Shown here: one piece after another, positions 1-61,614 of the stretch | Position numbering within the stretch: position 1 is the stretch's first letter | Layout of the letters: each line of letters starts with the position of its first letter | NCBI RefSeq assembly: GCF_003704095.1 | Contig: NW_020844782.1 | Location: forward strand, 310,001 to 374,000 | Length of the DNA stretch: 64,000 bases | DNA from: Pocillopora damicornis | Lineage: Eukaryota | Direction of reading: 5' to 3' | Notes under the pieces: generated by a model | Databases searched by the model: none | What the model was told of the DNA's origin: nothing | Seen by the model: the letters and a program-made list of their open reading frames with translations, nothing else | Made by a program: the position numbers and the translations under genes

Positions 1-1320
1 AACTAGCTTCGCAAGGAAAGAAATGCGTTTGACGAGGTGGCAAAGAAGCTCGAGCATGTTCATTTCTCGACCATGCTGAAACTCAACGTCGGAGGCCATT
101 TTTTCTCCACAAGTTTGGCGACTATGACTAAAGATCCAGGTACTTTGAAGCAAGTTTTCAATTTTGAACGAAGGATTGATTTCTAGCTGTCTGTACAAAG
201 TTCGCCTCCATTCAATTGTTTATCCATAAATTCAAATCCTACTTGCGCCCGCAGCTGTTTTAGTAGCTGAGAGAATTCGATTTTAAAGTCTATTGTTCGA
301 AACGATACTTCCGTTTTGCATGCCGATTTCTGAGCTTATACCTGCTTCTTTACGCTTGTTTAAAAACGGACAGGCATGTGGAACGCAGTCCTAAATAATC
401 CACCATTACTTCTAGTTAACTCAGTACATCACGCTGAAAACAATTTTGATATGGCTGACTATAGTTTGCCATGTGATGTACGATGCCACCCGCCAAACTG
501 GGTAAATGAAGTTGATTCTTAGTGAAAAATAGGATTCAGGTATTAAAAGGGTTTTGTTTATTATGTTTTCACGGGTTCCACGTTACATGCCATGTTTTCA
601 GGCAGATTTGACACAAAACCTGGCGAGGATGGATCTTACTTCATCGATCGAGAACACACTTCCGACATATCTTAAATTATCTTCGCACTGGGAAACTCGT
701 CTTACCGGACAATAAGGTCGTTCGCAAGGAGTTGTTAAACGAGGCAGAATTCTATCGAATCGATGGGATACTCGATGAGTTGAAAGCAAAGCCGTTTAAA
801 GATTCTGCAATTCTCTCTTCAAAACAGTGCAAGACCCTGGTAGACTGGTTGAAGGACACTTACGAAAGCTTAGGCGACGATTACGTGTTGTTATACCGAG
901 CTTCTCGCGATCTATTAAGTTCTACTAAAAATATTAAATGAGAGCTTCTTGGCATATAGCTCAAACCTTATCTTAAGAAACTTCTAGTAAACTTTCTCCT
1001 GTCGCAAATTCATGAAAAACTTTTTTCTTCTTTTTTGTTCTTTCCTGTTCAGCCTTGTCAATGCCAGTGGCTTGCCACCAACAAAGTTGCCTTTGATAGA
1101 TGGTATGGATGGAAAAGCCATCTTTTGCTACAGTAGCGATGGCCCAGTATTTGGAGGTGGAAATGACCTTAATATTTGCAACTCTCCAAATTCTTACAAC
1201 TGCTCTGTTAGCCTTGGCAATTCATACCAGTGCCCAGTAGGTCAGAATGGTTACTATTTTTTAACAGGAAGTCAAGACTTCACTGTGAATGAAATGGAAG
1301 TGTTTTTGTTCGAAAATTAA
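1..1320 (+). pseudogene. BTB-TLDc paralog A, pseudogene (5' end outside the window)
   Basis: Exon 1 tail ends at 139 (GATCCAG|GT). The exon 2 acceptor is mutated (ACAG to ACGG, ~571-574) and ATG has become ACG. A 4-nt deletion in the IDRDGTH codons (~652) shifts the frame. A deletion from the YRASR codons runs into intron 2 sequence (~910), and a second deletion removes the exon 3 acceptor (~1020-1035). The TLDc tail is intact to TAA 1320. Confidence 0.88.
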
Positions 1321-3321: not shown

Positions 3322-3552
3322 AACATCCAGTTGTTTCTAAGAAATCGAAACACTGAGAATTAATCAAAACCTCGTGCAATTTCCGCGAAATATGAAGACA
3401 TAGAAGCTTTTGTTAATTCTTGGAACTCTTTGCATTTTGTACTCGTGGACGGCTTGTTGGAGAAAGTTGAAATGTTTCCCTCCCGCATTTCGAAGAAAAG
3501 TGACTCGCAAAACAGTGCGAAAGAGTTTAAGTTGTCTTTCTCTCGCAGTTCA

Positions 3553-3641
3553 ATGAAAGATTTGCCAAACAAGCACATTACTGATACATTGAGTATTTTG
3601 AGGCGCGAGATAAGCAAAGTTCGTAAAGAAAAGGAAGCCTT
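3553..3641 (+). pseudogene. Relic of BTB-TLDc exon 1
   Basis: MKDLP-NKHITDTLSILRREISKVRKEKEAL aligns to KDLPDDEALDEVNKHIKDAFDILKRETNKLRKERNAF with an internal deletion. No BTB sequence follows. Confidence 0.7.
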
Positions 3642-4222
3642 AATTTGTATTCGACAGGCAGGCAGTGGGGGCAGGCAGGGGCAGTTTGTTTTATTAAGGT
3701 GTTGTGAGGGGAAGCGGGGAAGGGTGAGTAAGGTTTTTAAACTAGCTTCAGTTCTCATGTAAATTTAGAATAGTTTTTAATGGAATAGTAATTTTCTCTC
3801 TACCACGAGTGATATAATAGATTAATTTACAATCAGACAGCGAGGGGAAATTAAAACAGATAAACAACAGACAAATTTTGCATATTCTGTGGGATTTGCT
3901 GTGAGCACTAAACTTGAATTATTTTCGCTGAAAAAGTGTCGACGGGGAAGAGATGCGGTAAAATTGACCGCGAAGTGAACTCATAATAAGAATGCACTAC
4001 TTGATAATCAACGTTTTCCAATATCCAATTAATTTTTATGCATGACGTGACTCGAAGTAATTTATGCATGATGAAATTGATTCACCCATACATTTCCGAG
4101 AAATCAACTTACCGAGAATCACAGCAACACGCAAATTCTAAGAATAGACGTTATATCTCGGGATTCTCAGGAAAAAAATTGATTTCTTCACCTGTCCTTT
4201 TGTATAACCCACTTGAATTAAG

Positions 4223-5996
4223 ATGTCGACAAAGCGTAACTCAAAGAAAGATTTACCCGACGATGAAGCCTTAGACGAAGTGAATAAACACATCAAAGAC
4301 GCTTTCGACATTCTGAAGCGTGAGACAAACAAGCTTCGCAAGGAAAGAAATGCGTTTGACGAGGTGGCAAAGAAGCTCGAGCATGTTCATTTCTCGACCA
4401 TGCTGAAACTCAACGTCGGAGGCCATTTTTTCTCCACAAGTTTGGCGACAATGACAAAAGATCCAGGTACTTTAAAGCGAGTTTTGAATTTTGAACTAAG
4501 AATTGAGATCTAGCTTTTTGATACACTGTACAAAGTTCGCTTTTATTCAGTAGTTTATTCATAAATTCAAATTCTGTTTGCATCCGCAGCTGTTTAAGTA
4601 GTTGAGAGAATTCGATTTTTAAGTCCATTGTTCAAAACGATACTAACGTTTTGCGGCTGACTTCTGAAATTACACCTGCGTCTCTATGCTTGTTTAAAAA
4701 CGAGCAGGCATGTGGAAAGCAGTCTTAAATAATCCGGCATTACTTCTAGTCAACTGAATACACCACAGTAAATAGAGATTACTTCATGGAAAATGCGCGC
4801 GTACGATTTTTATTCACGAGTTGTGTAGTATCAGAAAACGAACGAGTGAGCGCAGCGAACGAGTGAGTTTTCTAATACGTATCAACGAGTGAGTGAAAAT
4901 CGTACAAAGCATTTTCCATGCTGTAATGTGTTTATTTCATAGGTGCTGAGATTTTTTCGTGTTGTCTTTGGTAGACAAATAGCACAGATGGGGCGATGAA
5001 AAGCGTAAAAAGTAGTTTAAAAAGTTCTCAACAACAAGTTAATAAAAGTGCATAAAGTTCATAACACTTAAGCTTACCTGTGTTCATCAGATATCAATCA
5101 AGTTCTAGTCGGCTCGTACTCGTTGCCATCTTTAGTGCGTACGGAGATAATAAATTCGCTAATGAATTCATTCAACTCAGCCGCTGGAATATCTTCAATT
5201 TTCCTGTCTACGTCCTTCGTTTTCAAAAATCTTTCAAGCAATCTTACATCTCTTTCAGTTTTTTGAGCGGTATTTTTGTTTTCGTGTTCTGAAATGAATT
5301 ATTCAACTGAGTAAACAGAAGCGAACCTTCCGTCGGCCATTTTTCAAAGCGCGCGGGATTTGTGCAACGGCTCGCGCATGACGTTCTCTTCAGTACGTTC
5401 ATTCATCATTAATGAAATTTCGTCGTTCGCGTTGCTGATTGGACGAACGATAATTTTTTCACGGTGAAATTTTGTTGTTCGTACTCCTGACTGGCTACAT
5501 TTAGAATCAGTACGAATTTTATTCACTACGATTTTTGTGGGTAAATCTCAGTACCTATGAAATAAAAACATTTTTGATACGGTTGAATGCAGCTTGCTTC
5601 GTGATGTTCGATGCCACACGCCAAATTGGGTAAGTGTAGATGATTCTTTTTGAAAAAAAAAAAGATTAAGGTATATTAGAAAGGTTTTGTTCATCTTGTT
5701 TTCACAGGGTCCATGTTACATGCCATGTTTTCAAGCAGATTTGACACAAAACCTGGCGAGGATGGATCTTACTTCATCGATCGAGACGGAACACACTTCC
5801 GACATATCTTAAATTATCTTCGCACTGGGAAACTCGTACTCCCGGACGATAAAGTCGTTCGCAAGGAGTTGGTAAGCGAGGCGGAATTCTATCAAATCGA
5901 TGGAATACTCGATGAGTTGAAAGCAAATCCGTTTAAAGATTTTGCAATTCTCTCTTCAGAACAGCGCGAAACCCTGGTAGACTGGTTGAAAGACAC
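4223..5996 (+). CDS. BTB-TLDc paralog C (exon 1 4223-4466; exon 2 from 5708 to the gap)
   Basis: Canonical GT/AG phase-1 junction gives TMTKDPG-SMLHAMFS. KCTD-type BTB motifs LNVGG and FIDRDGTHFRHILNYLR are present. Truncated by the N-gap at 5997. Confidence 0.85.
4771..5566. mobile_element. ~800-bp insertion in intron 1 of paralog C (terminal hairpin + 24-bp inverted repeat)
   Basis: Absent from the equivalent intron of copies A, D and E. 4778-4927 is a long palindrome around GAACGAGTGAGCGCAGCGAACGAGTGA. TTTATTTCATAGGTGCTGAGATTT (4931-4954) pairs with AAATCTCAGTACCTATGAAATAAA (5543-5566) with one mismatch. Confidence 0.85.
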
Positions 5997-6096: not shown

Positions 6097-8097
6097 TTTT
6101 CTCCACAAGTTTGGCGACTATGACTAAAGATCCAGGTACTTTGAAGCAAGATTTGAATTTTGAACTAAGGATTGAGATCTAGCTGGTTGATACACTGTAC
6201 AAAGTTCGCCTCCATTCAATTGTTTATCCATAAATTCAAGTCCTACTTGCGTCCGCAGCTGTTTTAGTAGTTGAGAGAATTCGATTTTGAAGTCCATTGT
6301 TCGGAACGGTACTTCCGTTTTGCATGCCGATTTCTGAGCTTTTACCTGCGTCTTTACGCTTGTTTAAAAACGGACAGGCATGTGAAACGCAATCCTAAAT
6401 AATCCGCCATTACTTCTAGTTAACTCACTACATCACAATGAAAACAATTTTGATATGGATGATTATAGTTTGCCATGTGATGTACGATGTCACCCGCCAA
6501 ACTGGGTAAATGAAGTTGATTATATTTTAAAAAAAGGATTTAGGTATTAAAAGGAGGTTTTTTCATCTTGTTTTCACAGGTTCCATGTTACATGCCATGT
6601 TTTCAGGCAGATTTGACACAAAACCTGGCGAGGATGGATCTTACTTCATCGACCGAGATGGAACACACTTCCGACATATCTTAAATTACCTTCGCACTGG
6701 AAAACTCGTTTTACCGGACGATAAAGTCGTTCGCAAGGAGTTGTTGAACGAGGCAGAATTCTATCAAATCGATGGGATACTCGATGAGTTGAAGGCAAAT
6801 CCGTTTAAAGATTCTGCAATTCTCTCCTCAGAACAGCGTGAAACCCTGGTAGATTGGTTGAAGGACATACGCGAAAGCTTAGGCGACGATTACGTGTTGT
6901 TATACCGAGCTTCTCGCAATGGATGGGCCGCCTCTTACTTCCACTCCTGTTGTGATAACAAAGGACCAACAGTTACAGTGATCAAGTATGGAAACTACAT
7001 ATTTGGAGGATATACTGAGCAGCCATGGCAATCGCCAAGTAAGAGACCTTTCTGTCAGCCCAATTGAATCAAACTCCTTTACTCCCCCCCCCCCCCCCCC
7101 CCCACCCCCATGATAAAATACCCCATCCTAATATTTTGCTCTCAAATTTGCTGTTTACTTTCCATTTACAGGCTAATTACAGAAGCGAGAAGTCTTTTGC
7201 TTGGGAACTTCTATCCTTTTTCTTCTTTTCTTTTCGGGAAAATGTAATGATGATTCTGCCAAAATATCACAAAAACTTAAATCGATCAGAAAGTGATTAT
7301 TTTACAATCGATCTAGCGCTACAAAAAACTCCCAAATGAGAGCTTCCTGGCATACAGCACAAACGTAATCTTAAGAACCTTCTTAGTTAGCTTTCTGCTT
7401 TCACAACTTCATTAAAAACTAGTGGAAGATTCAGCCAACCGCCCCCCTGCCCCCTCCTTTCTTGTAGGGTGAGTCAGCTTGCTCACATTTCTTAGGGATA
7501 AACCCTTTTGACTGACAGTTCAATGAAATATCAGGTTTTATAGGACTCCCTAATTCCATGAATAATGCATTGATGTTTTTGCTGCTGTTGTTGCTGTATT
7601 TTTATTTTTTTTTTGGTTGTTTTTTCTTGTCTTGTCTTGTCTTGTCTTATCTTGTCTTGTCTTGTCTTGTTTTTGTTTTTGTTTTTATTTTCGTTTCAAA
7701 GGGAGTTCTATCTTATGATATGGTTGTTGTTTTTTTTTTTTGTATATTTTAAGCTAGGTGTTACCATTGCATAGTCAAACCATAGTCTTCGATGAAAAAC
7801 ATCTTTCTAAAGTTGAACACCAAGCCTCCTTTATTTTAAGGAAGTGAACTTCTATCTCATCTAGAGTAAGCTAAGGGCAGAGTGATTTTTTTAGAGGTCG
7901 TGATGCACTGACATGAAAATGATAGCTCCAGCCACAAGCACAAGCGTTAATTATTGCAGTGACAATTTCTTGTCCTGGTTTTGTCCCTATTTGCTACCGA
8001 GAACTGTTATACAACCAATCTAACTCAGTAAATATTTTTTTACCAGATACTGCATCGTACAAAAGAGCACCAGGTTCTTTCCTGTTCAGCCTTGTCA
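6097..8097 (+). CDS. BTB-TLDc paralog D (exon 1 tail to 6135; exon 2 6580-7038; exon 3 from 8047 to the gap)
   Basis: Canonical splice sites. The 459-nt exon 2 encodes the BTB C-terminal half and the TLDc N-terminal motifs LLYRASRNGW, FHSCCDNKGPTVTVIK and IFGGYT. Both ends fall in gaps. Confidence 0.87.
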
Positions 8098-8296: not shown

Positions 8297-10728
8297 ATGT
8301 CGTCGAAGCGTAACTCAGAGAAAGATTTACCCGGCTTTGAAGCCTTAGACGAAGTAAATAAACACATTAAAGACGCTTTCGACATTCTGAATCGTGAGAC
8401 GAACAAGCTTCGCAAGGAAAGAAATGCGTTTGACGAGGTGGCAAAGAAGCTCGAGCATGTTCATTTCTCGACCATGCTGAAACTCAACGTCGGAGGCCAT
8501 TTTTTCTCCACAAGTTTGGCGACTATGACTAAAGATCCAGGTACTTTGAAGCAAGTTTTCAATTTTGAACTAAGGATTGAGATCTAGCTGGTTGATACAC
8601 TGTACAAAGTTCGCCTCCACTCAATTGTTTATCCATAAATTCAAATCCTACTTGCGTCCTCAGCTGTTTTAGTAATTGAGAGAATTCGATTTTAAAGTCC
8701 ATTGTTCGGAACGGTACTTCCGTTTTGCATGCCGATTTCCGAGCTTTTACCTGCGTCTTTACGCTGGTTTTAAAAAACGGACAGGCTTGTGGAACGCAGT
8801 CCTAAATAATCCACCATTAATTCTAGTTAACTCACTACATCACGATGAAAACAATTTTGATATGGCTGACTATAGTTTGCCATGTGATGTACGATGCCAC
8901 CCGCCAAACTGGGTAAATGAAATTGATTATATTTTAAAAAAAGGATTTAGGTATTAAAAGGAGGTTTTTTCATCTTGTTTTCACAGGTTCCATGTTTCAT
9001 TCCATGTTTTCAGGCAGATTTGACACAAAACCAGGCGAGGATGGATCTTACTTCATCGACCGAGACGGAACACACTTCCGATATATCTTAAATTACCTTC
9101 GCACTGGGAAACTCGTCTTACCGGACGATAAAGTCGTTCGCAATGAGTTGTTGAACGAGGCAGAATTCTATCAAATCGATGGGATACTCGATGAGCTGAA
9201 AGCAAATCCGTTTAAAGATTCTGCAATTCTCTCCTCAGAACAGCGTGAAATCCTGGTAGATTGGTTGAAGGACACACGCGAAAGCTTAGGCGATGATTAC
9301 GTGTTGTTATACCGAGCTTCTCGCAATGGATGGGCCGCCTCTAACTTCCACTCCTGTTGTGATAACAAAGGACCAACAGTTACAGTGATCAAGTATGGAA
9401 ACTACATATTTGGAGGATATACTGAGCAGTCATGGCAATCGTCAAGTAAGAGACCTTTCTGTCAGCCCCATTGAATCAAACTCCTTTACTCCCCCCCCCC
9501 CTCTCCCCCTTATGATAAAATACTCCATCCTAATATTCTGCTCTCAAATTTGCTGTTTACTTTCCATTTACAGGTTAATTACAGAAGCAAGAAGTCTTTT
9601 GCTTGGGAACTTCTACCCTTTTTCTTCTTTTCTTTTTGGGAAAATGTAATGATGATTCTGCCAAAATATCAAAAAAAAAAACTTAAATCGGTCAGAAAGT
9701 GATTCTTTCACAATCGATCTAGCTCTACAAAAAACTCCCAAATGAGAGCTTCCTGGTATACAGCACCAACCTAATCTTGAGAACCTTCTTTTTTAGCTTT
9801 CTGCGTTCACAACTTCATTAAAAACTAATGGAAGATTCAGCCAACCGCCCCCCTGCCCCCTCATTTCTTGTACGGTGAGTCAGCTTGCTCACATTTCTGA
9901 GGGATAAACCCTTTTGACTGACAGTTCAATGAAATATCAGGTTTTATAGGACTCCCTAATACCATGAATAATGCATTGATGTTTTTGCTGTTGTTGTAGC
10001 TATATTTTTACTTTGTTTTTTTGGTTGTTTTGTTATGTCTTGTTTTGTTTTTGTTTTGTTTTGTTTATTTTGTTTTTATTTTCGTTTCAGAGGGACTTCT
10101 ATCTTATGACAGGGTTGTTTTTTTTTTTTTGTATATTTTCAGCTAGGTGTTACCATAGTCTTCGATGAGAAACATCTTTCTAGAGTTAAACACCAAGCCT
10201 CCTTTATTTTAAGGAAGTGAACTTCTATTTCATCTAGAGTAAGCTAAGGGCAGAGTGATTTTTTAGAGGTCGTGATGCACTGACATGAAAATGATAGCTC
10301 CAGCTACAAGCACAAGCGTTAATTATTGCCGTGACAATTTCTTGTCCTGGTTTTGTCCCTATTTGCTACCGAGAATTGTTATACAACCAATCTAACTCAG
10401 TAAATATTTTTTACCAGATACTGAACCGTACAAAAGAGCACCAGGTTCTTTCCTGTTCAGCCTTGTCAATGCCAGTGGCTTGCCACCAACAAAGATGCCT
10501 TTGATAGATGGTAGGGAAGGAAGTGCCATCTACTGCCACAATAGCCGTGGTCCAGTATTTGGAGGTGGACATGATCTTTGCGTTCCAGATTCTCCAAATT
10601 CCTCCAACTGCTCCGTTAACCTTGGCATTACATACCAGTGCCCAGCAGGTCAGAATGGTAACCTTTTTTTAACAGGAAGTCAATACTTCGTTGTGAATGA
10701 AATGGAAGTTTTTGTGTTCAAAAATTAA
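8297..10728 (+). CDS. Complete coiled-coil/BTB(KCTD-type)/TLDc protein, paralog E, 337 aa
   Basis: Exons 8297-8540, 8987-9445 and 10418-10728 (244+459+311 = 1014 nt), all GT-AG and in frame. TLDc C-terminal motifs SFLFSL, GPVFGGGHDL and EMEVF are present. Confidence 0.93.
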
Positions 10729-11492
10729 AGGCATCGTTGTCAATTTTCTCTTCCTGATGAGACTACAACAGATATTGTAAACATCAGCTAATGACTAATT
10801 TCCTCTTAGTTATGTTGTTGTTAGTGAATTTTTTTTTAAACTAGATTGGAGAAGTAAGAGGCTTTCAAAACCTTTTTGTGGAACTGATCTGGCTTGTGAA
10901 CATTCGTTTCTTGCTTTTGATTTTCAAGAATTGTTTGCTAGTCAGTTAAGTGTGTTGTTGTTACTTGAGCAAGACTGAGTTATTAAAAGAAACGTTTGCG
11001 ACGACTGTTTCAGTAGAGGATTGACAAACATAATCAAAACTATAACAAAATTCTCGAACATGATTGGTTGTCACCTGCCCGATTTGAGCACTAACAGGAC
11101 AGTGAACGCGCCATGCTTGTATTTGGACAGTGTAGTAGGACAAATTAACGTCGTGTGCGCGTGCTGTTGCTGCGCATTTCGCCTAGTTGAAATTCAACTG
11201 CGCCCTGTTGTTGTTTTTTAGGTTAATGAAAGTGTATCACCTATGTCAAGTTTCAAACTCAAATTTTGTCATTGTTTTGATTGACGAATCGGACTCCCCC
11301 TTTGCATTTATCCACTCAGTCAGTTGGACTCCACTCAGTCCTATTACCATTATAGATCGAATGCGGATTGTATATATATATATAAAGGTCGATAGAAGTG
11401 CAAAATATACCTAACGCCCATGACACTAGGAAGGGCACAAATATGTTTAACGATCCAGCAAATGTTAGGCCTTCAGTTTGTAAAACAAAGCC

Positions 11493-11629
11493 CGGTCAAT
11501 ATCAATATCTGGGTAACTGCCCATCTACCCCTCCCCTAACTCAACAACAGTCAATTGATAACAACTTAGGGTTAATGTTGGGTTAGGGGAGGGGTAGGTG
11601 GGCAGTTACCCAGATACTGATATTGATCC
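11493..11629. mobile_element. Palindromic MITE (~137 bp)
   Basis: GGTCAATATCAATATCTGGGTAACTGCCCATCTACCCCTCCCCTAAC pairs with GTTAGGGGAGGGGTAGGTGGGCAGTTACCCAGATACTGATATTGATCC. Confidence 0.8.
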
Positions 11630-12080
11630 CAAAGCTCCTAGAAAGTCGCTTTTATTACCTTGATGTAAAACAATAAAGTGCTAAAAGGGCGCATTATCCC
11701 GAAATAGAAAAAAAAGTTTAAACTGTGTAGCTTCATCATAACATAAAGAGAAGAAAATTTCCTCGTAGGCATCTATCCTGAGTTATGACCTGCTCATCAG
11801 ACAAATTATATTCATTTGAACGCAACAGCTTCCTTGTAGTAGCCTTGTCTCTCCTGCATGGAAATGTTAATTTATTACTTAGAGCACTGATTTATTTTAG
11901 AAATTTTCTCGGCAAAGATACCCCCACCAACGCGGCGGTACAGTTTCCTTAGAAATTTAACCCTATTACCCAAGGCAAAATTTGGTTTAACCGTTCTCTC
12001 TCGAAGACACCGTATTCCCACCACTAGCGTAGCTTATTTTCTGCATATAAGCAAACACCCAACCCACAATTCCTGCAATC

Positions 12081-12230
12081 ACTCTGACGAAGGGCTGATG
12101 ATCGAAACGTTAGCTTTTAAACTCTCCACGGTGGCCAATTTATCTTATCAACTCAGTTGATAATACTAAATTACCCTGTAATACTCTCCTACCGACGCAG
12201 CAATTTCTTTAGAAATTTTCCCCCTCTATT
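12081..12230 (+). mobile_element. Penelope-like element terminal fragment with a degenerate minimal hammerhead motif
   Basis: CTGACGA-AGGGCTGATGATC-GAAAC-GTT at 12084-12111. There is an inverted copy at ~12960-12992 and related tails at ~26897-27025 and 59662-59760. Confidence 0.65.
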
Positions 12231-12552
12231 CATTTGTTTTGTGGACGTTAACCCATGACTATTCTCGTCGAACTAGGTCTTGAAAAAAACCGACAAAGGC
12301 GGTCAAGCGCGTAATATAAGCCCCAGGAAGCTGGCTCTGAAGAGGGATTCATTAATGTTTTTTTAAAAAAGTTCACACAACAACTAATTTTCGTAAATCT
12401 TATCGATACCTCTGGACGCTCAGGGATGCTTCAAACCAATCTTTCGTGTCTTTTGACTGTTTCAAAGGCTTGTATAATAAAGTAGCATGCGAAATGAAGT
12501 GGACGATAAAACACTTCTGGATTCTCATTGCACAGCATAACTAAACATCCAG

Positions 12553-12808
12553 TAGCCCACGTCTAACCGTCCCCTCCCCCCTCCCCCCCTACCCCAAGGT
12601 GAAATGGAAGCAAGGGAACATCCGCGCAAAACTGGCACTAATCGTTTTCCGTGACGTCACTCTTTTGCAAGAAAATATATAGCCGCTTTTTATTGGTTAA
12701 CCCCTTTTGCCGGTTCTTATGTGAATTCTGATTGTGTAAGGTTAGTAATTTTTTTTTTTTCACTCTTACGAACAGGATGGTGCACAAAAGCTTGCATGGT
12801 CAACTTTT
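12553..12808 (+). mobile_element. Second copy of the AcademH-like left end, duplicated with its flank
   Basis: Same TIR, same AACATCCAG target site and same upstream flank as at 2271. Cut by a gap. Confidence 0.8.
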
Positions 12809-23728: not shown

Positions 23729-26273
23729 TCACTGCTTCTCAAAGCCAAAAACTTCCATTTCACTAATGGTGAAATTCTGGTTCCCTTGAAGAAATGTGGC
23801 AGCATTCTGACCGGTAGGACACTGGTACGAGTTATTCAGGCTGACACTGCAGTTGTTAGAATTTGGAGCACTGACAATACGAAGGTCATGGCCACTTCCA
23901 AATGTGGGCCCATACCCATTGTGACAGTGGATTGCATTCCCCTCTTTTCCAGTTATCAGTGGTAGCTTTGAAGGGGGTAAACTGTTTGGGTTGACAAGGC
24001 TGAACAGGAAAGACTCAGGAGCTTTTTTGTAATTGGCTCCTCCAGCTGAACAACAACAACAGCAAAAGTCTCGGATTATAAAACGTTCTCTACATTGACC
24101 AGATGATTTACCTATCCAAAACGGTCCGAGAGGCTCTTAGAGAAGAGTGAGTAAAAGTTCCTTTATATGAGTATAAAACTCTTCTTATGCATTGGCATTT
24201 TCGGAGGGATTTTTTCTAACAGTCTTACATTTTCTCAGCACAGTCACGATGTAGTCACGTGTGATGTAGATCGCGACGTTTCGACTGCATACTGCTTCTT
24301 CAGGCGATGAGGTCGACTGGTCATGCGTGATCTTATGAGCATGATGCTCTGCTGTGATTAGTTGTTTTTCAACAGCTCTGATTGGAAAATGGAAAAAGGA
24401 TTGAAATGCACCAATCAGGGCTGTTAAAAAACAACTAATCTCAGCAGAGCATCAGGCTTATAAGATCACGCATGATTGGTCGACCTCATCGCCTGAAGAA
24501 GACTAAAAGTATGCTGTTGAAACGTCGCGATCTACATCACAGTGACTACATCGTGAGAATAACGAAAAAACTTAGCTTTTAGAATGCTTTTTGTATTATT
24601 CAACCATCAACCGAACAAGTTGGTGTAAACGAAAAAGAAATCGGTCGTAACAAGCTAAACGGCAAAGTCAGCGCGGCATTTAAGTTAATGTCAACAATCA
24701 CCTTTAAAACCCNNNNNNNNNNNNNNNNNNCCCCCCCCCCCCTTCCTTACTGCACACGTCATTTTCTCTTCAAATCTCTTCGGCCTCGAAACTGTCCCAA
24801 CGGAAACGTTGCCTCATACAAACATTTTCTCCTGAACTCTAAACTTGCCGCGCGCGGTATAAACTACCCGAAGGTAAAGTCTCTTAGGATAACGAACAAT
24901 GGTGCCTTTGTCTAAAAATAATTCAAACCATGACAACAGATTCTGCGTGACGGGCAAAATTTATATCAAATAATTTTTGCGGCTAGTTTAATTTTGGGAG
25001 GAATGGGACTTTTCATTGGAAAATGGTCACAAGTTAGAATAGCGAGGGAAATTTTGGGCTTACCTCCGTCTTCCCAGCATACAGACGTCACGCAATTCGA
25101 AACTCAACTTTTTATTTGAAGAAAACAAAAGACTACAACAAAAGTTAGTGAAAAGTGCGTTAGAGTTATAAGGACTTACCAGGTTGATCCCATTGTTCTT
25201 CAGTGTATCCTCCAAACACGTAGTTCCCACTCTTGATTACTGTAACTGTGGGTCCTTTGCCGTCACAGCAAGAGTGAAAGTTGGCAGCTGTCCAACCATT
25301 CTGGGAAGCGCGGTATAACAAAACGTAGTCGTCACTTGCACTTTCGATGGTTTCCTTCAGTAAGTCGATCAGTTGTTGTCGTTGCTCTGATGAAAGGATC
25401 GTAGAAGTCTTGAACGGCCTTGCTCTCAAATCTTCAATTATTCCTTCGATCTGGTAAAACTCGGCTTCGGTTAGTAATTCGTTACGCACAATTTTGTCAT
25501 CCGGTAGCATAAGTTTTCCAGTGCGAAGATAATTCAAGATATGTCGGAAGTGTGTTCCATCTCGATCGATAAAGTAAGATCCATCCTCGCCAGGTTTTGT
25601 GTCAAATCTTCCAGAAAACATGGCGTGCAGCATCGACCCTGAGAATAGAAACATATATTAGTGTCTATAGCTGCCCTTTACGAGGAGTTTTCACAAGAAA
25701 GTTGGGGTGAAATATTTTCCCAGAACTAGCTTACAAATATTTTCACAGTCGAGTACACTTATACTCAAAAGCAAAGTTTATAAATACTAGACTAAATAAA
25801 AATGTATGAAAAAGCGTCAGAAACTATTTTGTCCACAAACAGAGCCTTTTCTCTATGGGGCAAAACTTGTAGTTTGTGATTTAGGTTCCTCTATCAAACC
25901 GCCGAAAGTGAAAGTAGTTCAAGTACATAATTTTATATCATTAGATGTTATACCATGATATTTCCATTGAAGGACCAACTGGACTGATTTCGTTAAAACG
26001 TCTGTTAATTTTATAAGAAGTACCTGGATCTTTGTTCATAGTCTCCAAACTGGTATCGAAACGGTGGCCGCCGACATTAAGTTTCAGCATCTTTGAGAAG
26101 TGGATGTGCTCAAGTTTCTTCGCCACCTCGTCAAAAGCCTCCTTCTCTTTGCGAACTTTATTCGTCTCTCGCTTCAGAATATTAAAAGCCTCTCTAACGT
26201 GTTGGTTTACTTCCTCCAGGGCTTCATCGCTGGGCGAATTGTGCTCTTCTTCCGACTTACGCGATAACGACAT
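23729..26273 (-). CDS. Complete divergent coiled-coil/BTB/TLDc protein, paralog J, 341 aa
   Basis: Exons 26273-26024, 25638-25180 and 24045-23729 (250+459+317 = 1026 nt). Exon 3 is absent from the ORF track and reads AGGANYKKAPESFLFSLVNPNSLPPSKLPLITGKEGNAIHCHNGYGPTFGSGHDL...EMEVFGFEKQ*. Intron positions and phases match paralog E. Confidence 0.92.
24244..24556. mobile_element. Palindromic Penelope-like relic: ~142-bp inverted arms, each with a minimal hammerhead ribozyme motif
   Basis: Arms at 24244-24385 and 24411-24556. The right arm reads ATCGC-CTGAAGA-AGACTAAAAGTATGCTGTT-GAAAC-GTC-GCGAT (24488-24531). The left arm has the same motif on the minus strand (24308-24270). Confidence 0.78.
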
Positions 26274-27407: not shown

Positions 27408-28882
27408 TTAGAACTCAGCACCAAGCCACCATTGCGTGGTGGAAAAAGAATTTTCAGTGCACTTATGTTGAGGATTGGTAAGGTCATAAAATCCAAAATT
27501 ATCTTCGCCCATCAGGGCACCTGTACTTGGGTCCCAAGAACAACCGTTTCTTCTGCTCCAGTATGAATCAGTATGCATATGTTCGTTATCACGCTGCACA
27601 AGCATCCCCGTGCAATTCGTACAACTTCTTCCTCGAACTGAAATGTACTCATACTTCTGACAGCTATCTTGGTTGACAAACGTTAGGATGTCCGTATCTT
27701 GGAGAGTCGTTCGTGCGTAGTCGGTGAAATTAAGGCCTGACAGGAAATTGCATGTCACGCGCCAGTGGGTCGAGTTGTCCCGGATGTTGACCATTGCTTG
27801 GTAAGATACTCGATAATCATTCCAGTTGAATCTTGTTTCGTTTCGCGGAACGTTGAAATAAAAAGGTTTTCGTTTGTAAATGGCCTTATTTTCTAGAGAG
27901 AATGACTCGATGAGAGTCCAAACTTTTCCGGGTTCCGAGTCAAAATCACAATAACTCTGAATCGTGTCATTAAGCTTATACACGCCTGACTTCGACTCTG
28001 GTTTCAGCTTCAAGTAAGATTGGCATGAATCGACTCTTGGGTGGAATATCTCGCATCTCTTTCCCTGGTAATGCTGTGGACATGTGCAGTTGTATTTTTC
28101 TTTGACGTCATCGCAATTCTCTGTGCATGTGCCTCCATTAAGGCAAGGGTTTGATCGACAACAGCCATTCAGGCATCTACTATTTTCCTGAAACCGAACA
28201 CGAACGACAAAAAAACGAAAATTAAAATTTCACTGAATAGAATAAGAGGTCATTGTTCTTTTCTTTGTCTTTTAAAAACATGAGTGTTGCAACAGAAAAT
28301 ATTTTCAAAGAAACTCTTCATTTCATATAAGGCGAATTTTTCGAAGCGACTCGTCCCCACCAAAAATCATGATCAATGGCTTTTCAGCCAATTTTGACTT
28401 GATCATTTACGTTTTCCAGCTTTGGAGACAGTATTCGTGTAGATACTTAAAGTCCTTGCTGGCTCCTGTTTCAGCTGATCCTATTGTTCACAGTTTGTTT
28501 ACGAATCTTATTCGAAAACTACTCTACAAGAACTCAAACTTACCCTCATGCCGTTTTGCTGCACATGATACAAAACAGTTCCTGGTCTTTTCACCCGCTT
28601 CCCGATGGCCCCATCAATGTCCGTGTCCAGAAGCTCACACATTTTTCCACTGACTTGAAACGCAATGCAATCGCAGTGTTTGGCGCAGTGACGAAAACAC
28701 TCCCAGGGGTCCCGCACGCTTTCAGTCTGAATTGTATGATTTTCTATGCTGAAGTTCTCCATGAATATGTTATTGATGAAGATCAGTGGTGTTTGCATTT
28801 GGTTGCTCGCTGTAGTAATTGGAGGGATTAGCAGAAACGCTGTTCCACAGTTGAGCCATAGAAAGGTGAAATATAAATCCAT
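27408..28882 (-). CDS. Secreted PAN/Apple + EGF + fibrinogen-C-like domain protein, ~372 aa
   Basis: Exon 1 28882-28544 has a signal-peptide-like N-terminus and the PAN pattern ECFRHCAKHCDCIAFQ..CEL. A phase-0 intron follows. Exon 2 28187-27408 has the EGF CRSNPCLNGGTC...CTC...YQGKRCE and then DSCQSY...SGVYKL...YCDF...WTLI, typical of fibrinogen/intelectin-like N-terminal subdomains. Confidence 0.85.
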
Positions 28883-29141
28883 CTTATTCTGAAAAATAGT
28901 TCAGTGAAAAGGTTGTCGTGCTTTTCAAAGAAATATAAAATTAAAACTCCTTAACAGCCTGCTTTTAATGAGACTGGAGCCAAATAAACAATGAATAGCA
29001 TCTATTGGTGAAAAAATAAATAGTCAGCTATTTTTTCACGAACATTTTCTGTTTCAAGACGGAAGCATTTTTCAGATCGAAGCAAAAATGAAAACTAAGG
29101 AGCTCTTAGACACGAATTTCCATCAAATGAAAGCCGATTCT

Positions 29142-33566: not shown

Positions 33567-34742
33567 ATCAATTTTATATCTTGTCCCCACGCTATTTGCA
33601 TACTCTTTGACTTGGAGAAAAATATAATTTCAGTGTCTTCAGTTTTGGTTTCATCAGTCGTGACATCAAAATTCTAAAAATAGCTCGATCAACCCCAAGG
33701 TTTTCATTGCTAATAAATGATGTTTCTGTGTAGCTGATGATAACGCTGTAGTATGATCTGATTCATTCGAGGGAGAAAACTTTCGGAAGTTAACTGTAGC
33801 CACATTATTTCCCTTCATATAATTATTATAGGACAAATATATATCTTCCTAATAATGTTTTGGTCTGAAGCTAAGATAATTACGATCAAGAACTGTGTTT
33901 AAGGGCAGATAGTTAAATTTAAACAGTTCCACCATAATGCTACAAAGTGCTCACTTTTTTTAACCCCCTTAGATGTGTTCTACATTTAACTTCCCTCTAA
34001 AAAATCAACGAATTATTCAGCAAAGAGTTGATACAAAAAGGGAATGATGCAACACCAAATTTTAATGGACGAAAATGTATAGCAGCTGAAAGGGAAAGTT
34101 TGGAAATGGATCATAAATAAATAATATAGTAAACAAAGCTGTCGTTGTGCGGGGCCGGACGGCTTTCTCCTGACCAGCTCACGTCAAACCGTCTTGCCCT
34201 ACACACGTCCGCTTTAACGACATCAACGAGAGCAAAAATCCTTTTTTGAGCACGGTACACCGAGGAGTGCAATGCTCGTTAGAACGTGTACGTGAGCTAT
34301 GATTTTCTATATAATTGAACATTTTTTTTTTATTTTGACTGGTGCATTTCAGATGCATGAAGTCCACTTAGGAAGCTTTAATGAAATTATTTCAATACAT
34401 TAATATTTACAAGCTTAAGGTAATCTTCGTCGGACGTGTGTTGTTAATTATCAACTATTTACCGAAGTGGAGGTGACTTGTGATGGAAAATTTTTTTTTT
34501 CCATATGCTGAAACAATGAGACGATATTGTACAAAAAGATGATTATAACTCATTTATTTCGATCACAAAATATTCGGGCAAAAATTCCGCGTATGCTGCT
34601 CGTAGGTAAATTGAAAAGAATTTTCGGAGTTTGAGTAGCCAATCAGAACGCGCCTTCATCGACATCCACTGTTTTAATATACAATATAACAATATATATA
34701 CTCGGATAAACTGCGGGTGAAAAAGGAATAAACAGCAGAATT

Positions 34743-35687
34743 ATGGCGCCAAAACATTTAACAGAAGATGGAACTCAGAAAACAACATTTCAAGAACTGG
34801 AATGTTCCCTCTCTCTAGTCAGTGAGGTACAGCAACAACCAATTTATTACGCTATATTCAACATTGTCCTCTCCATCACAGCATTTCTTGGCAATTCAAT
34901 CATCCTTGTTGCCCTTCACAAGGAATCGTCCCTCCATCCACCTTCTAAACTCTTGTATCGTTGTCTAGCAGTAACTGATCTTTTGGTTGGTCTTGTCAGC
35001 CAGCCTTGCCATGTTTCTTATTGGATGTCCTTGGTTCAGGAACACTGGAGTCTTTGTCCATACGCAAGGGACGCAGCTTACATAACAAGCTATGCATTAT
35101 GCGGAGTGTCTTTGTCTACGATGACGGCCATAAGCGTGGACAGACTTCTCGCTCTGTTATTGGGGCTGAGATACAGACAAAAAGTAACTTTGAAGCGCAC
35201 ATATGTCATTATAGCTACCTTTTGGATTGTATGTAATGTCGCTGCATCATTCTTCATTTGGAACAACAGTTCTACCATTTGGGTTGGCCGTATTTTTATA
35301 CCGTCTTGCCTTGTAATTTCAGTTGGTTCTTACACAAAGATTTTCCGCACTCTCAGTCATCACCAGACTCAGGTACAAGATCATGTTCAACAACAGCCGA
35401 GCCAACCAAATGCACTGAACATGGCGCAATACAGAAAGGCAGTGTACAGTGCACTGTGGGTGCAGTTAGCATTAGTTGTTTGTTATTTGCCCTATGGTAT
35501 AATGGAAATTGTGATCAGTCATAGAAAAACCTATTCATCCCATTCAGCAGTTAGTAGAGAAATAGCAATCATCTTAGTTTACTTTAACTCCACTTTAAAT
35601 CCGTTCCTTTATTGCTGGAAGATTTCTGAGATAAGACGAGCAGTAAGGCAGACAATCAGACAAGCGCTTTGTTGTCTATGGCGTTAG
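34743..35687 (+). CDS. Intronless class A GPCR (cnidarian-expanded adenosine/melanocortin-receptor-like orphan), 314 aa
   Basis: Seven TM segments with GN in TM1, LAVTD in TM2, DRL at the DRY position, CYLP in TM6 and NSTLNPFLY in TM7. Confidence 0.95.
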   Translation: MAPKHLTEDGTQKTTFQELECSLSLVSEVQQQPIYYAIFNIVLSITAFLGNSIILVALHKESSLHPPSKLLYRCLAVTDLLVGLVSQPCHVSYWMSLVQEHWSLCPYARDAAYITSYALCGVSLSTMTAISVDRLLALLLGLRYRQKVTLKRTYVIIATFWIVCNVAASFFIWNNSSTIWVGRIFIPSCLVISVGSYTKIFRTLSHHQTQVQDHVQQQPSQPNALNMAQYRKAVYSALWVQLALVVCYLPYGIMEIVISHRKTYSSHSAVSREIAIILVYFNSTLNPFLYCWKISEIRRAVRQTIRQALCCLWR

Positions 35688-59400: not shown

Positions 59401-61614
59401 CTTAAGGCTTTTTTTAGAAATGTAAGTTAAGGTTCTCGATCATACGCTGTTCGCAGTTACTGTATGAGCTAATAAACTACACGAAGAAAGATTTTTCGTG
59501 AAAGGAAAAATTGCTGCTTTAAGGCTTACAGAAAACTTGATCAGACAATGGCGGTCTTTTTTTCGTATAGATTGCTGTAAATTAGTCCACAGCAATAGCA
59601 AATGCTTCCGAATGAACTTAGAAACAAATTAAAAGAGAGAGCAGAAAAGTCCTTTTATTTTCTGACGATTGGCTAACGCTCGAAACGTCGCCTGTTGAAG
59701 CTAAATATGGTGGCAATTTACATAGTCATCATATTTGATGACACAAAATTCGTGTAAAATCGTGTCTCTTGAACGCGTCCTGGTTAAACCAGAAGTCAGA
59801 TTTTATTCTTGGTTACGTTCCTCTCATTGAAACAATAATTCGCTTGTAAAAAATGTGCTTTCACTTTATTTGGGGGCGCAGAAATATGCATCGCCGTTTG
59901 TTTGATTCAAAGTTTTAAAGGTTTCAAATCATGAAACCGTCAGAATTTTGATATCGGAAATCATCACGCCGATTGTCTGAGCAAATCGAAAATTGTCGAA
60001 TTCAAAAGTTGAAACTGTCCATCAGAAAAAAATGAAGTCTTTTTCGTAATTCGAAAGTTTCACAAAAATGTGTTAAGGAGCAACAGGGGTAAATTTAAGG
60101 TAAATGCTCCTGTCTTATATTTCATATTTCATATCAGCGTGCGCATGCACTGTACTGATAAGGTCGAAGTGCGCTTCATAGCTCCGAACTTCAGGAAACA
60201 GTATTAACTGTAATGGGAAAATAAGCATGGCTCTCGGTTCAGGATTCTTCGCTTGACACTTGGAAATTTGCGTGAGCTTGACAAGTTTGGCTGTTCTGCG
60301 TTCAACCTTAACTATTCAGGCGAATATGGAAGCGATCTTCGTAGTAATGAACACTACTTAAACAGTAGCGAAAAGAAGGCCTGAAAAAAATTCAGGACTG
60401 TATGGGACCCGAACCCATGACCCTTGCGATACCGGTGCATTGCTCCACCAACTGAGCTAACAAACCAACTGGATTTTTTTCAGTTCAACTGAATTTTTTT
60501 CAGGCCTTTTTTTCACTCCTGCTTAAGTAGTGTTCATTACTGCAAAGATCGCTTCCGTATTCACGTCTTTATCCGCAGTTCAAATATACGACTTTCATAT
60601 ATTCACAGCCGTTTATTCACCTCTTCACGGGTTTATTTGGAACCAACACAGTGACCAGCTCCCAGTTGGTTTGTTAGTTCAGTTGGTGGAGCACTGCACC
60701 GGTATCGCAGGGGTCATGGGTTCGGGTTCCGTACAACTGCTTAAGTAGTGTTCATTACTGCGAAGATCACTTCCATAGTCACGTCTTTATCGCAGTCAAA
60801 TAAATGACTTTCATACATTCACAGCCGTTTAACTAATTAGACTGATGAGTAGTTCTGGAGATTCACCCAACGTGTTTTCTCACGCCATCTAGGATTGTTG
60901 AAACGAAAACACAGCGGCGGACGAGATCCCAGTAGTAGCAACAGCCCAGAGAGTTCCGACAGCGATTATGGCGGTGGTATGGCCTCGGCCTCTAAAAGAC
61001 CTCATGCTGAGTCCCCCTTGACACTTCCTACGGTTATTCCCCCACCGACGGATATCCTGACAAGGGCATTTCCTGGTTTATCGTCCACGGTGCTTGAACA
61101 CGTGTTAAAAGGCTGTAATGGAAATGTCCTTCAAGCCATTGAAGTAATCGTGCAATACAACGCAAGCAGATCACATACAAACGGTCTTCTCGGTCAGTCG
61201 AATATACTGCAGGCTCAACCTCCGAATGACGCCAATCCCCAAGCTCCTCCACCTCCTCCCCAGGCTTCTCACGTTCCTCCCCCGTCCTCAGCTTCCCTTC
61301 CACCCCTGTTCAAATTTAACTACGTAAATGGACAATATCGTTATCTTATGCCGCCATCTTTGATGCCTCTTACGTCATATATGTTCCCTTCGGCTAACGG
61401 CGTCGGACTTCCGTTCCCTCAGTTTCCGGTCGACTTACAGAATCACCAATTCAAGCCGGTTGAAAGTGCACCGGAAGCGGAAGAAAGTGCGAACGGTGAC
61501 ACTAAGCCTGTTGTTAATGCTTATACTTCCGGTGTATGCAAAGGTTGTGGGCAAGAAACTAACCAGGATGAAAATTTATGCGCGAATTGCTCAGCGTCGT
61601 TCAATCGAAAGTAA
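56496..61614 (+). CDS. Dmrt: Doublesex/mab-3-related transcription factor (DM + DMA + C-terminal zinc ribbon), 352 aa (397 aa if the ATG at 56361 is used)
   Basis: Exon 1 ends at 56832 (G|GTAGG) and carries the full DM domain [54 protein letters not shown]. After a phase-1 intron, exon 2 60893-61614 carries the DMA domain [31 protein letters not shown], a Pro-rich region and CKGC-x10-CANC. The subfamily cannot be assigned by eye. Confidence 0.93.
60322..60830. mobile_element. tRNA-derived (SINE-like) repeat in an inverted-plus-tandem arrangement
   Basis: tRNA-like unit GGTTTGTTAGTTCAGTTGGTGGAGCACTGCACCGGTATCGCAGGGGTCATGGGTTCG at ~60668-60735 (A/B boxes, GGT loop), with an inverted copy at ~60398-60470. 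The flanking unit GCTTAAGTAGTGTTCATTACTGC is repeated. Confidence 0.8.

Follow-up and report, generated by a model that had tools for sequence, protein, structure and literature searches.

The window analyzed here comprises 64,000 nucleotides from the coral Pocillopora damicornis (assembly GCF_003704095.1, contig NW_020844782.1, positions 310,001 to 374,000 of the forward strand; G000:C1417:310001-374000 in our nomenclature). Its first 26 kb contain the right-hand portion of a tandem array, whose genes have three exons each and code for proteins that combine a coiled coil with a BTB domain of the KCTD type (Pfam BTB_2, E-value 4.6e-14) and a TLDc domain. In the youngest copies of this array, amino acid replacement in the C-terminal half of TLDc exceeds the neutral rate, whereas the BTB domain is conserved; this behavior is limited to one clade. 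The array extends upstream to approximately 240 kb of the contig, which adds six copies (U1 to U6). In total, 14 copies and additional fragments were analyzed across 96 kb, and several of them are broken. BTB_2 and TLD were the sole matches of the array protein in a Pfam scan; F-box, FTH and MATH domains were absent.

The architecture is exemplified by copy E on the forward strand. Exon 1 (8297..8540) codes for the N-terminus, the coiled coil (helix 14-53) and the start of BTB. Exon 2 (8987..9445) codes for the remaining BTB domain and the N-terminal half of TLDc, and contains M84, R92, F93 and F142, which are of the Cul3-binding type, as well as G196. Exon 3 (10418..10728) codes for the fast-evolving C-terminal half of TLDc. 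Since intron 2 splits the domain (Pfam TLD positions 3-83 are located in exon 2 and positions 80-169 in exon 3), exon 2 is not purely a BTB exon. The GT..AG joint 9445-10418 was present in RNA contigs of all four runs from three studies, and the joint of intron 1 (to 8987) in those of two of the four runs; the underlying reads are a mixture of paralogs, and this evidence is at the level of contigs. An alternative GT..AG joint within intron 2 (9445-10143), which would remove the frame of the TLDc C-half, occurred in one RNA run. Among 115 candidates in the whole genome (G000), 90 TLD matches were found, 71 being N-halves; this number is a lower bound. The closest named proteins are from Pocillopora meandrina, P. 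verrucosa and P. damicornis, followed by those from Oculina, Orbicella, Montipora, Porites and Stylophora.

The first 25 kb of the window are interrupted by 12 assembly gaps, and copies C, D, F, G, H and I are therefore partial. Copy A (1..1320, forward) is a pseudogene with a stop in exon 1, a 4-nt deletion in exon 2, and a deletion that comprises the end of exon 2 and the start of exon 3. Copy C (4223..5996, forward) consists of exon 1 and an incomplete exon 2, with no exon 3 assembled, and copy D (6097..8097, forward) of exon 2 flanked by the end of exon 1 and the first 16 codons of exon 3. Copy F is represented on the reverse strand by an intact exon 3 (14683..14993) and the tail of exon 2 (15696..15814), the remainder being lost to a gap. 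Exon 3 of copy G (16345..16655, reverse) has an in-frame TGA at 16492-16494, and its 5' exons are unassembled; an intact exon 3 of the G type exists in protein P0133. From copy H, the final codons of exon 3 (18641..18667, forward) emerge from a gap of 597 N. These codons, which are identical to the end of exon 3 of G, and an inverted 92% copy of the G intron (16881-18043) border the gap, which may either hide an inverted paralog or mark a local misassembly. Copy I has an intact exon 3 (20861..21168, reverse), which has diverged further than any other in the young group. The end of exon 2 (22068-22093), a gap of 100 N and a partial exon 1 (22194-22343) were assigned to it (22068..22343, reverse); this exon 1, which is separated from exon 3 by the gap, may belong to another gene. 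The old paralog J is located at 23729..24045 (exon 3), 25180..25638 (exon 2) and 26024..26273 (exon 1) on the reverse strand. Upstream of the window, U6 lacks one nucleotide at the end of its exon 1, and U5 is a truncated copy. Three orphan truncated pieces of exon 1 of the U5 type are located at 3529-3654 of the window and at G000:C1417:303824-304635.

Divergence and exchange of exons

In a first-pass annotation, three variable patches in exon 3 of copies A, E, F, G, I and J had been contrasted with nearly invariant BTB exons. In copy E, patch 1 comprises residues 273-279 (10531..10551), patch 2 residues 287-292 (10573..10590) and patch 3 residues 314-317 (10654..10665). All 18 patch strings quoted (three patches in six copies) are correct, including the TGA of G in patch 2. 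The coiled coils of C, E and I are 95-100% identical and exon 2 of C, D and E is 91-96% identical, as had been noted. However, this contrast was unmatched: exon 3 of A/E/F/G/I/J was compared with exon 1 of C/E/I and exon 2 of C/D/E. C has no exon 3 and D only 16 codons of it, while exon 1 is missing from F and G, as is most or all of exon 2. Moreover, J had been omitted from the 5' comparison, although it shares just 70% (exon 1) and 78% (exon 2) identity with E. In matched copies the gradient from the 5' exons to exon 3 persists, though it is smaller. For exons 1, 2 and 3, the identity is 95%, 87% and 74% between E and A, 87%, 90% and 78% between E and U6, and 70%, 78% and 60% between E and J.

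Such a gradient could also be created if the 5' exons had been homogenized by gene conversion, or if exons of different copies had been joined in scaffolding. In single cases this holds. Copy I combines a young exon 1 (dS 0.05-0.28) with an older exon 3 (dS 0.36-0.48), with a gap between them, and for U2 and U3 the dS values are 0.2-0.4 in the 5' part and 0.75-0.98 in TLDc. The 12 gaps in the first 25 kb also speak for this possibility. However, for U6, A and E, the three young copies having all exons, the proportions of synonymous differences (pS) are 0.18 in the coiled coil, 0.08 in BTB, 0.18 in the TLDc N-half and 0.09 in exon 3, whereas the proportion of nonsynonymous differences (pN) peaks in exon 3 (0.045, 0.032, 0.071 and 0.114, respectively). 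As pS of the 5' segments (0.08-0.18) is not below that of exon 3, homogenization of the 5' exons is not the general cause. In U5 and J the situation is reversed: their exons 3 are close (dS 0.33), whereas the 5' exons are diverged (dS above 1.4). Furthermore, omega (the dN/dS ratio) is higher for exon 3 than for BTB in all three other clades whose exons are located on single contigs. An origin of the contrast from conversion or scaffolding is therefore largely refuted and appears highly improbable.

The sequences nevertheless indicate that exon-level exchange does occur within the array, and in both directions. For example, U2 (G000:C1417:273900-286800; L036, L037) is chimeric, with a U3-like exon 1 (dS 0.4) and U1-like exons 2 and 3 (dS 0.13-0.34), and mosaics of F with A and of E with G were found in exon 3 of proteins from other samples. 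A test resembling the pairwise homoplasy index (PHI) gave p 0.42 on 12 informative sites, with 42% of the pairs being incompatible; recombination and recurrent change are thus indistinguishable on those 12 sites.

Selection on exon 3 in the young clade

Exon 3 of the young clade (U6, A, E, F, G and I; 102 codons) was analyzed with site models in our own implementation (GY94/F3x4, eight beta classes, rescaled M0 branch lengths, naive empirical Bayes (NEB) posteriors). The comparison of M8a and M8 yielded twice the log-likelihood difference (2dL) of 16.5 (p 4.8e-5), with an omega of 4.1 for 17% of the sites. The 2dL values for M1a/M2a and M7/M8 were 16.5 (p 2.6e-4) and 18.3, respectively. For the coiled coil plus BTB, omega was 0.20, and for the N-half of TLDc it was 0.57; neither partition yielded a selected class. 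With shared branch lengths, omega of the youngest paralogs was 1.01 in exon 3 and 0.34 in exons 1-2 (p 1e-6), which is the excess in exon 3 that the first-pass annotation had led one to look for.

A posterior above 0.5 was obtained for 15 sites: 237, 238, 261, 267, 278, 289, 291, 292, 297, 298, 306, 316, 317, 324 and 326. Six of these are part of the three patches, which make up 17 of the 102 codons: site 278 in patch 1, sites 289, 291 and 292 in patch 2, and sites 316 and 317 in patch 3. The claim that variation is concentrated in these patches is therefore correct for six sites only. Among the nine sites outside are 237-238 (10423..10428), 267 (10513..10515; M/M/R/Q/K/K, NEB posterior 0.996) and 324 and 326 (10684..10692; NEB posteriors 0.93 and 0.99).

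The signal held under several controls. It was retained without A and G (p 8e-4) and without I (p 5e-4), with free branch lengths (2dL 17.9, 12.3 and 13.1), with double and triple substitutions modeled (p 0.007, 0.033 and 0.026), with the 3' flank as a neutral clock (p 8.5e-5 and 0.0035) and in fits of the whole gene (p 0.0025 and 0.022). Neutral data were simulated 25 times each with one, three and six segments, 50 of these simulations thus including recombination; none of the 75 reached a 2dL of 16.5, and two passed 5.99. In a tree-free test of 44 sites pre-chosen from other corals, dN/dS was 1.6-2.5 when I was left out (probability of a ratio not exceeding 1, 0.05-0.001). In pairs of U6, A and F, dN at free sites was 0.13-0.18 as compared to a divergence of 0.03-0.06 in the flank.

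For replication, 80 metagenome loci were collected, of which 44 had intact exons 2 and 3; after removal of identical rows, 24 of them formed three clades. Their omega values were 0.50, 0.55 and 0.47 for exon 3 versus 0.20, 0.26 and 0.16 for BTB, which like that of the young clade is under purifying selection. About half of the exon 3 sites fit an omega of 1 in these three coral clades. Of the 15 selected sites, 11 belong to the 44 of 102 sites that are variable within other coral clades (p 0.011). The population set consisted of 53 distinct close variants out of 86 proteins, gapped rows, proteins of G000 itself and more distant proteins being excluded. Selected sites carried on average 1.08 residues not seen in G000, as compared to 0.56 at the remaining free sites and 0.24 at constrained ones (p 0.007 for selected sites versus all others).

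Several observations weigh against diversifying selection. A class above 1 was not significant for exon 3 of the three metagenome clades (p 0.25, 0.47 and 0.41) or of three further G000 clusters (p 0.62, 1 and 0.15), and all 12 exon 3 copies of the array including J gave no selected class, also from three starts. One of eight exon 3 sets was thus significant, surviving an eightfold correction, and none of the seven others. Weak positives arise elsewhere, as two partitions of the metagenome clades other than exon 3 reached p 0.038 and 0.027. The trio U6/A/F alone was not significant with the neutral rate of the 3' flank (p 0.075), nor was the tree-free test of the 44 pre-chosen sites with I included (dN/dS 1.0-1.3). 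For novel residues in the 53 variants, the difference between selected and other free sites had p 0.06. In pairs of E-type and U6-type copies, the flank divergence of 0.21-0.26 is on a par with dN at free sites (0.13-0.32) and higher than dS of exon 3 (0.09-0.16); low dS may therefore contribute to the high omega. Among the six copies tested, A and G are broken, U6 has its 1-nt deletion, and F and I are incomplete; E alone was seen both complete and intact among the young copies. Finally, nine of the 15 selected sites lie beyond the patches, and the tests depend on our own codon code, NEB posteriors and six sequences only.

These points would fit a relaxed constraint, under which the outer side of the C-half of TLDc no longer has a partner and is drifting close to neutrality. 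The omega above 1 in one small clade would then stem from the shortness of the alignments, mutations in clusters, tracts of gene conversion and damaged copies. In line with this, about half of the exon 3 sites fit an omega of 1, with no class above 1, in three other coral clades, the seven other sets are not significant, multinucleotide models halve the statistic, dS of exon 3 is below the flank divergence in between-type pairs, and several copies are broken. On the other hand, relaxation is unable to raise omega above 1, and the signal held through five controls. Moreover, dN at free sites exceeds the flank divergence in the U6/A/F pairs, and the new residues of other samples land on the selected sites. 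We thus regard relaxed constraint as rather unlikely, and diversifying selection on the C-half of TLDc in the young clade is probably real. The earlier claim of diversifying selection stands for the youngest paralogs, but not for the older copies and six other paralog sets, where it was not significant. Most likely, bursts of selection follow duplication and are succeeded by near-neutral drift or saturation over longer times.

The BTB and TLDc domains

The best sequence matches of the BTB domain in the PDB are KCTD10, 7, 13 and 5. In KCTD7 and KCTD5, the Cul3-binding determinants given in PMC10348674 are M/F at M76, R plus a hydrophobic residue at R84/H85, and an aromatic residue at Y131 (KCTD5 F128). 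These determinants are retained in the coral proteins: M84, R92 and F93 are found in 40 of 40 sequences, and position 142 is F in 39 and Y in one (8 of 48 poorly modeled rows were dropped for these counts and for that of G196). Pseudogene A carries a T at position 84. A profile of the array's TLDc type matched 11,455 clusters at E-values up to 1e-10. Among 72 relatives picked by length from the best 150 profile matches, 26 combine TLDc with BTB_2 (23), BTB-BACK (1), B-box (1) or U-box (1). In other eukaryotes, this TLDc type is also fused with a dynamin-like GTPase, a U-box and a B-box (P0322, P0427 and P0369). Two KCTD-like transcripts of Hydra are reported to be raised in symbiosis (PMC6019070).

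For the P. verrucosa counterpart of E, the AlphaFold model reaches a predicted local distance difference test (pLDDT) score that is mostly above 90 in TLDc. It matches the TLDc domains of OXR2, NCOA7 and mEAK-7 with Z-scores of 19-21 and root-mean-square deviations (rmsd) of 2.2-2.6; for 4ACJ and 7OBP, a Z-score of 21.2 and an rmsd of 2.2-2.3 were obtained with 161-162 aligned residues. The variable positions 273, 275, 281, 289, 291 and 326 alternate with conserved ones along predicted strands. Weak covariation in 332 domains (effective number of sequences 305) connects 282, 288 and 290 with the core sheet and couples 291-323, 281-286 and 283-318. Both observations suggest that the variable residues may form the outer face of the second sheet and rim loops. 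Matches of exon 3 to single-chain variable fragments of antibodies (phmmer) were rejected as chance hits driven by the linker.

Corals use V-ATPase on the symbiosome. A surface glycine (mEAK-7 G276, NCOA7 G815, NCOA7-AS G91) is described as being required for V-ATPase binding, and the contacts of mEAK-7 listed in PMC9263379 include G276, P316/Q317 (to subunit A), T354, Y341, Y367 and K384. In our alignments, G276 corresponds to G196, which is invariant in 40 of 40 sequences, P316/Q317 to the selected and variable positions 237/238, and Y367 falls within the loop 284-287. T354, Y341 and K384 were placed in the loop 275-278, near 267 and in the loop 302-305, respectively, by motif only, as automatic alignments disagreed: three MAFFT modes gave different results for the C-half, and HHalign fixed the N-half and the segment G279-C289, the stretch between them being aligned with low confidence. 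The coral's own mEAK-7 keeps Y341, T354 and Y367.

The array proteins might still be V-ATPase regulators, whose variable residues would tune or protect the interface (e.g. at symbiont vacuoles or as decoys for effectors) and whose BTB domain would multimerize or ubiquitylate the pump. The fold, the conserved glycine and the coincidence of 237/238 with P316/Q317 argue for this function. However, G196 may be retained for folding (PMC8608904), canonical TLDc genes with unchanged contact residues such as mEAK-7 still exist in the coral, and most selected sites (289-292, 297, 316-317, 324 and 326) were not placed at any named contact. Because V-ATPase is highly conserved, a host-only partner of this kind is unlikely to drive an omega of about 4. 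We therefore consider a regulatory function at the pump improbable.

Possible function and neighboring genes

The reading that we favor, with moderate confidence, is that the array is a birth-and-death family of oligomeric Cul3 adaptors with a variable substrate-binding face on TLDc. The BTB domain would oligomerize and bind Cul3, and the variable residues would be exposed on a single side of the TLDc sandwich. By means of this exposed sheet and the rim loops, paralogs could capture different targets for ubiquitylation, and ectopic recombination may shuffle the patches. The targets may be foreign, namely proteins of pathogens or symbionts, although this part of the proposal is rather doubtful. 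Still more tentative is a generalization in which corals would have converted TLDc, a domain that docks to V-ATPase, into a variable intracellular recognition module. Patches under positive selection would be shuffled by recombination among the tandem genes, and each paralog would capture other proteins of pathogens or symbionts, perhaps effectors directed against V-ATPase, for Cul3-dependent destruction; a similar use would explain the large TLDc expansions of mycorrhizal fungi, amoebae, rotifers and diatoms.

A similar pattern of diversification is known from the MATH-BTB adaptor families of nematodes. In nematode F-box families, the C-terminal domain is under positive selection (Thomas 2006, as described in PMC8120010). 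The coral array resembles both in its tandem expansion, the purifying selection on the cullin-binding domain, the positive selection on the C-terminal domain and the proposed role in defence. In contrast, its variable module is TLDc and not FTH, FBA or MATH, its BTB is of the KCTD (T1) type, and selection is seen in one young clade. With the Cul3 adaptors KCTD5, 7, 10 and 13 the array proteins share BTB_2 and the binder-type residues (M, R, hydrophobic and aromatic). These adaptors are single-copy and conserved, whereas the coral proteins are multi-copy and fast-evolving and have an N-terminal coiled coil and a C-terminal TLDc. The TLDc regulators of V-ATPase (OXR1, NCOA7, TBC1D24, mEAK-7 and yeast Oxr1/Rtc5) have the same fold and the contact glycine equivalent to G196, but only about 20% identity, and the loops with which mEAK-7 contacts the pump appear to be variable in the coral.

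This genome contains approximately 70 TLDc loci, as compared to five in mammals. Expansions of TLD are reported for Glomeromycotina (up to 400 copies; 10.1101/2022.06.24.497490) and Entamoeba invadens (210 copies; PMC4053983), and the parts of these accounts considered here suggest protection from oxidative stress or an unknown function. The coral set is likewise large and divergent, but differs in the site-level selection and the adaptor model. Clusters of BTB-TLDc genes were also found in rotifers, amoebae and diatoms. No description of coral BTB-TLDc arrays or of selection on them was found in the literature searched, most subscription journals being outside this search. TLDc, TLD and KCTD are not mentioned in four supplementary files of PMC13319465, and neither BTB nor TLD in the main text of PMC6208414, the supplements of which may list the family. 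Judged from the sequences, a diversifying TLDc module would be new relative to the nematode adaptor families and previously unreported in that literature. TLDc is regarded there as a conserved module for V-ATPase binding; to be the diversifying part of a probable Cul3 adaptor in corals would, if true, be its second role. This would also supply an explanation, open to testing, for the unexplained expansions of TLDc in several eukaryote lineages, and a candidate intracellular recognition family for coral immunity and symbiosis with named codons to mutate.

Additional arrays of BTB-TLDc genes are located at G000:C3082:142000-197000 and 283000-300000 and at C235:1-27000. Many of their genes have two tandem BTB domains, and long insertions occur in the loop following the GPxFG strand. 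TLDc copies with no BTB detected were found at G000:C173:110000-135663 (L135-L137) and in P0393; in one of them, an upstream exon codes for a hydrophobic stretch of membrane-like character. A database relative combines collagen, Ig and TLDc, and extracellular TLDc proteins are thus possible.

Downstream of the array, the window contains a gene for a secreted PAN-EGF protein (27408-28900, reverse), whose C-terminal Cys-rich domain is unnamed by Pfam. It is followed by two tandem single-exon genes for rhodopsin-family G protein-coupled receptors (34710-35687 and 37875-39137), the second of which is preceded by a short-period repeat. DMRT genes are represented by a DM-like frame identified by eye (49131-49391), a Pfam DM domain (56325-56843) and a DMA motif (60853-61614).

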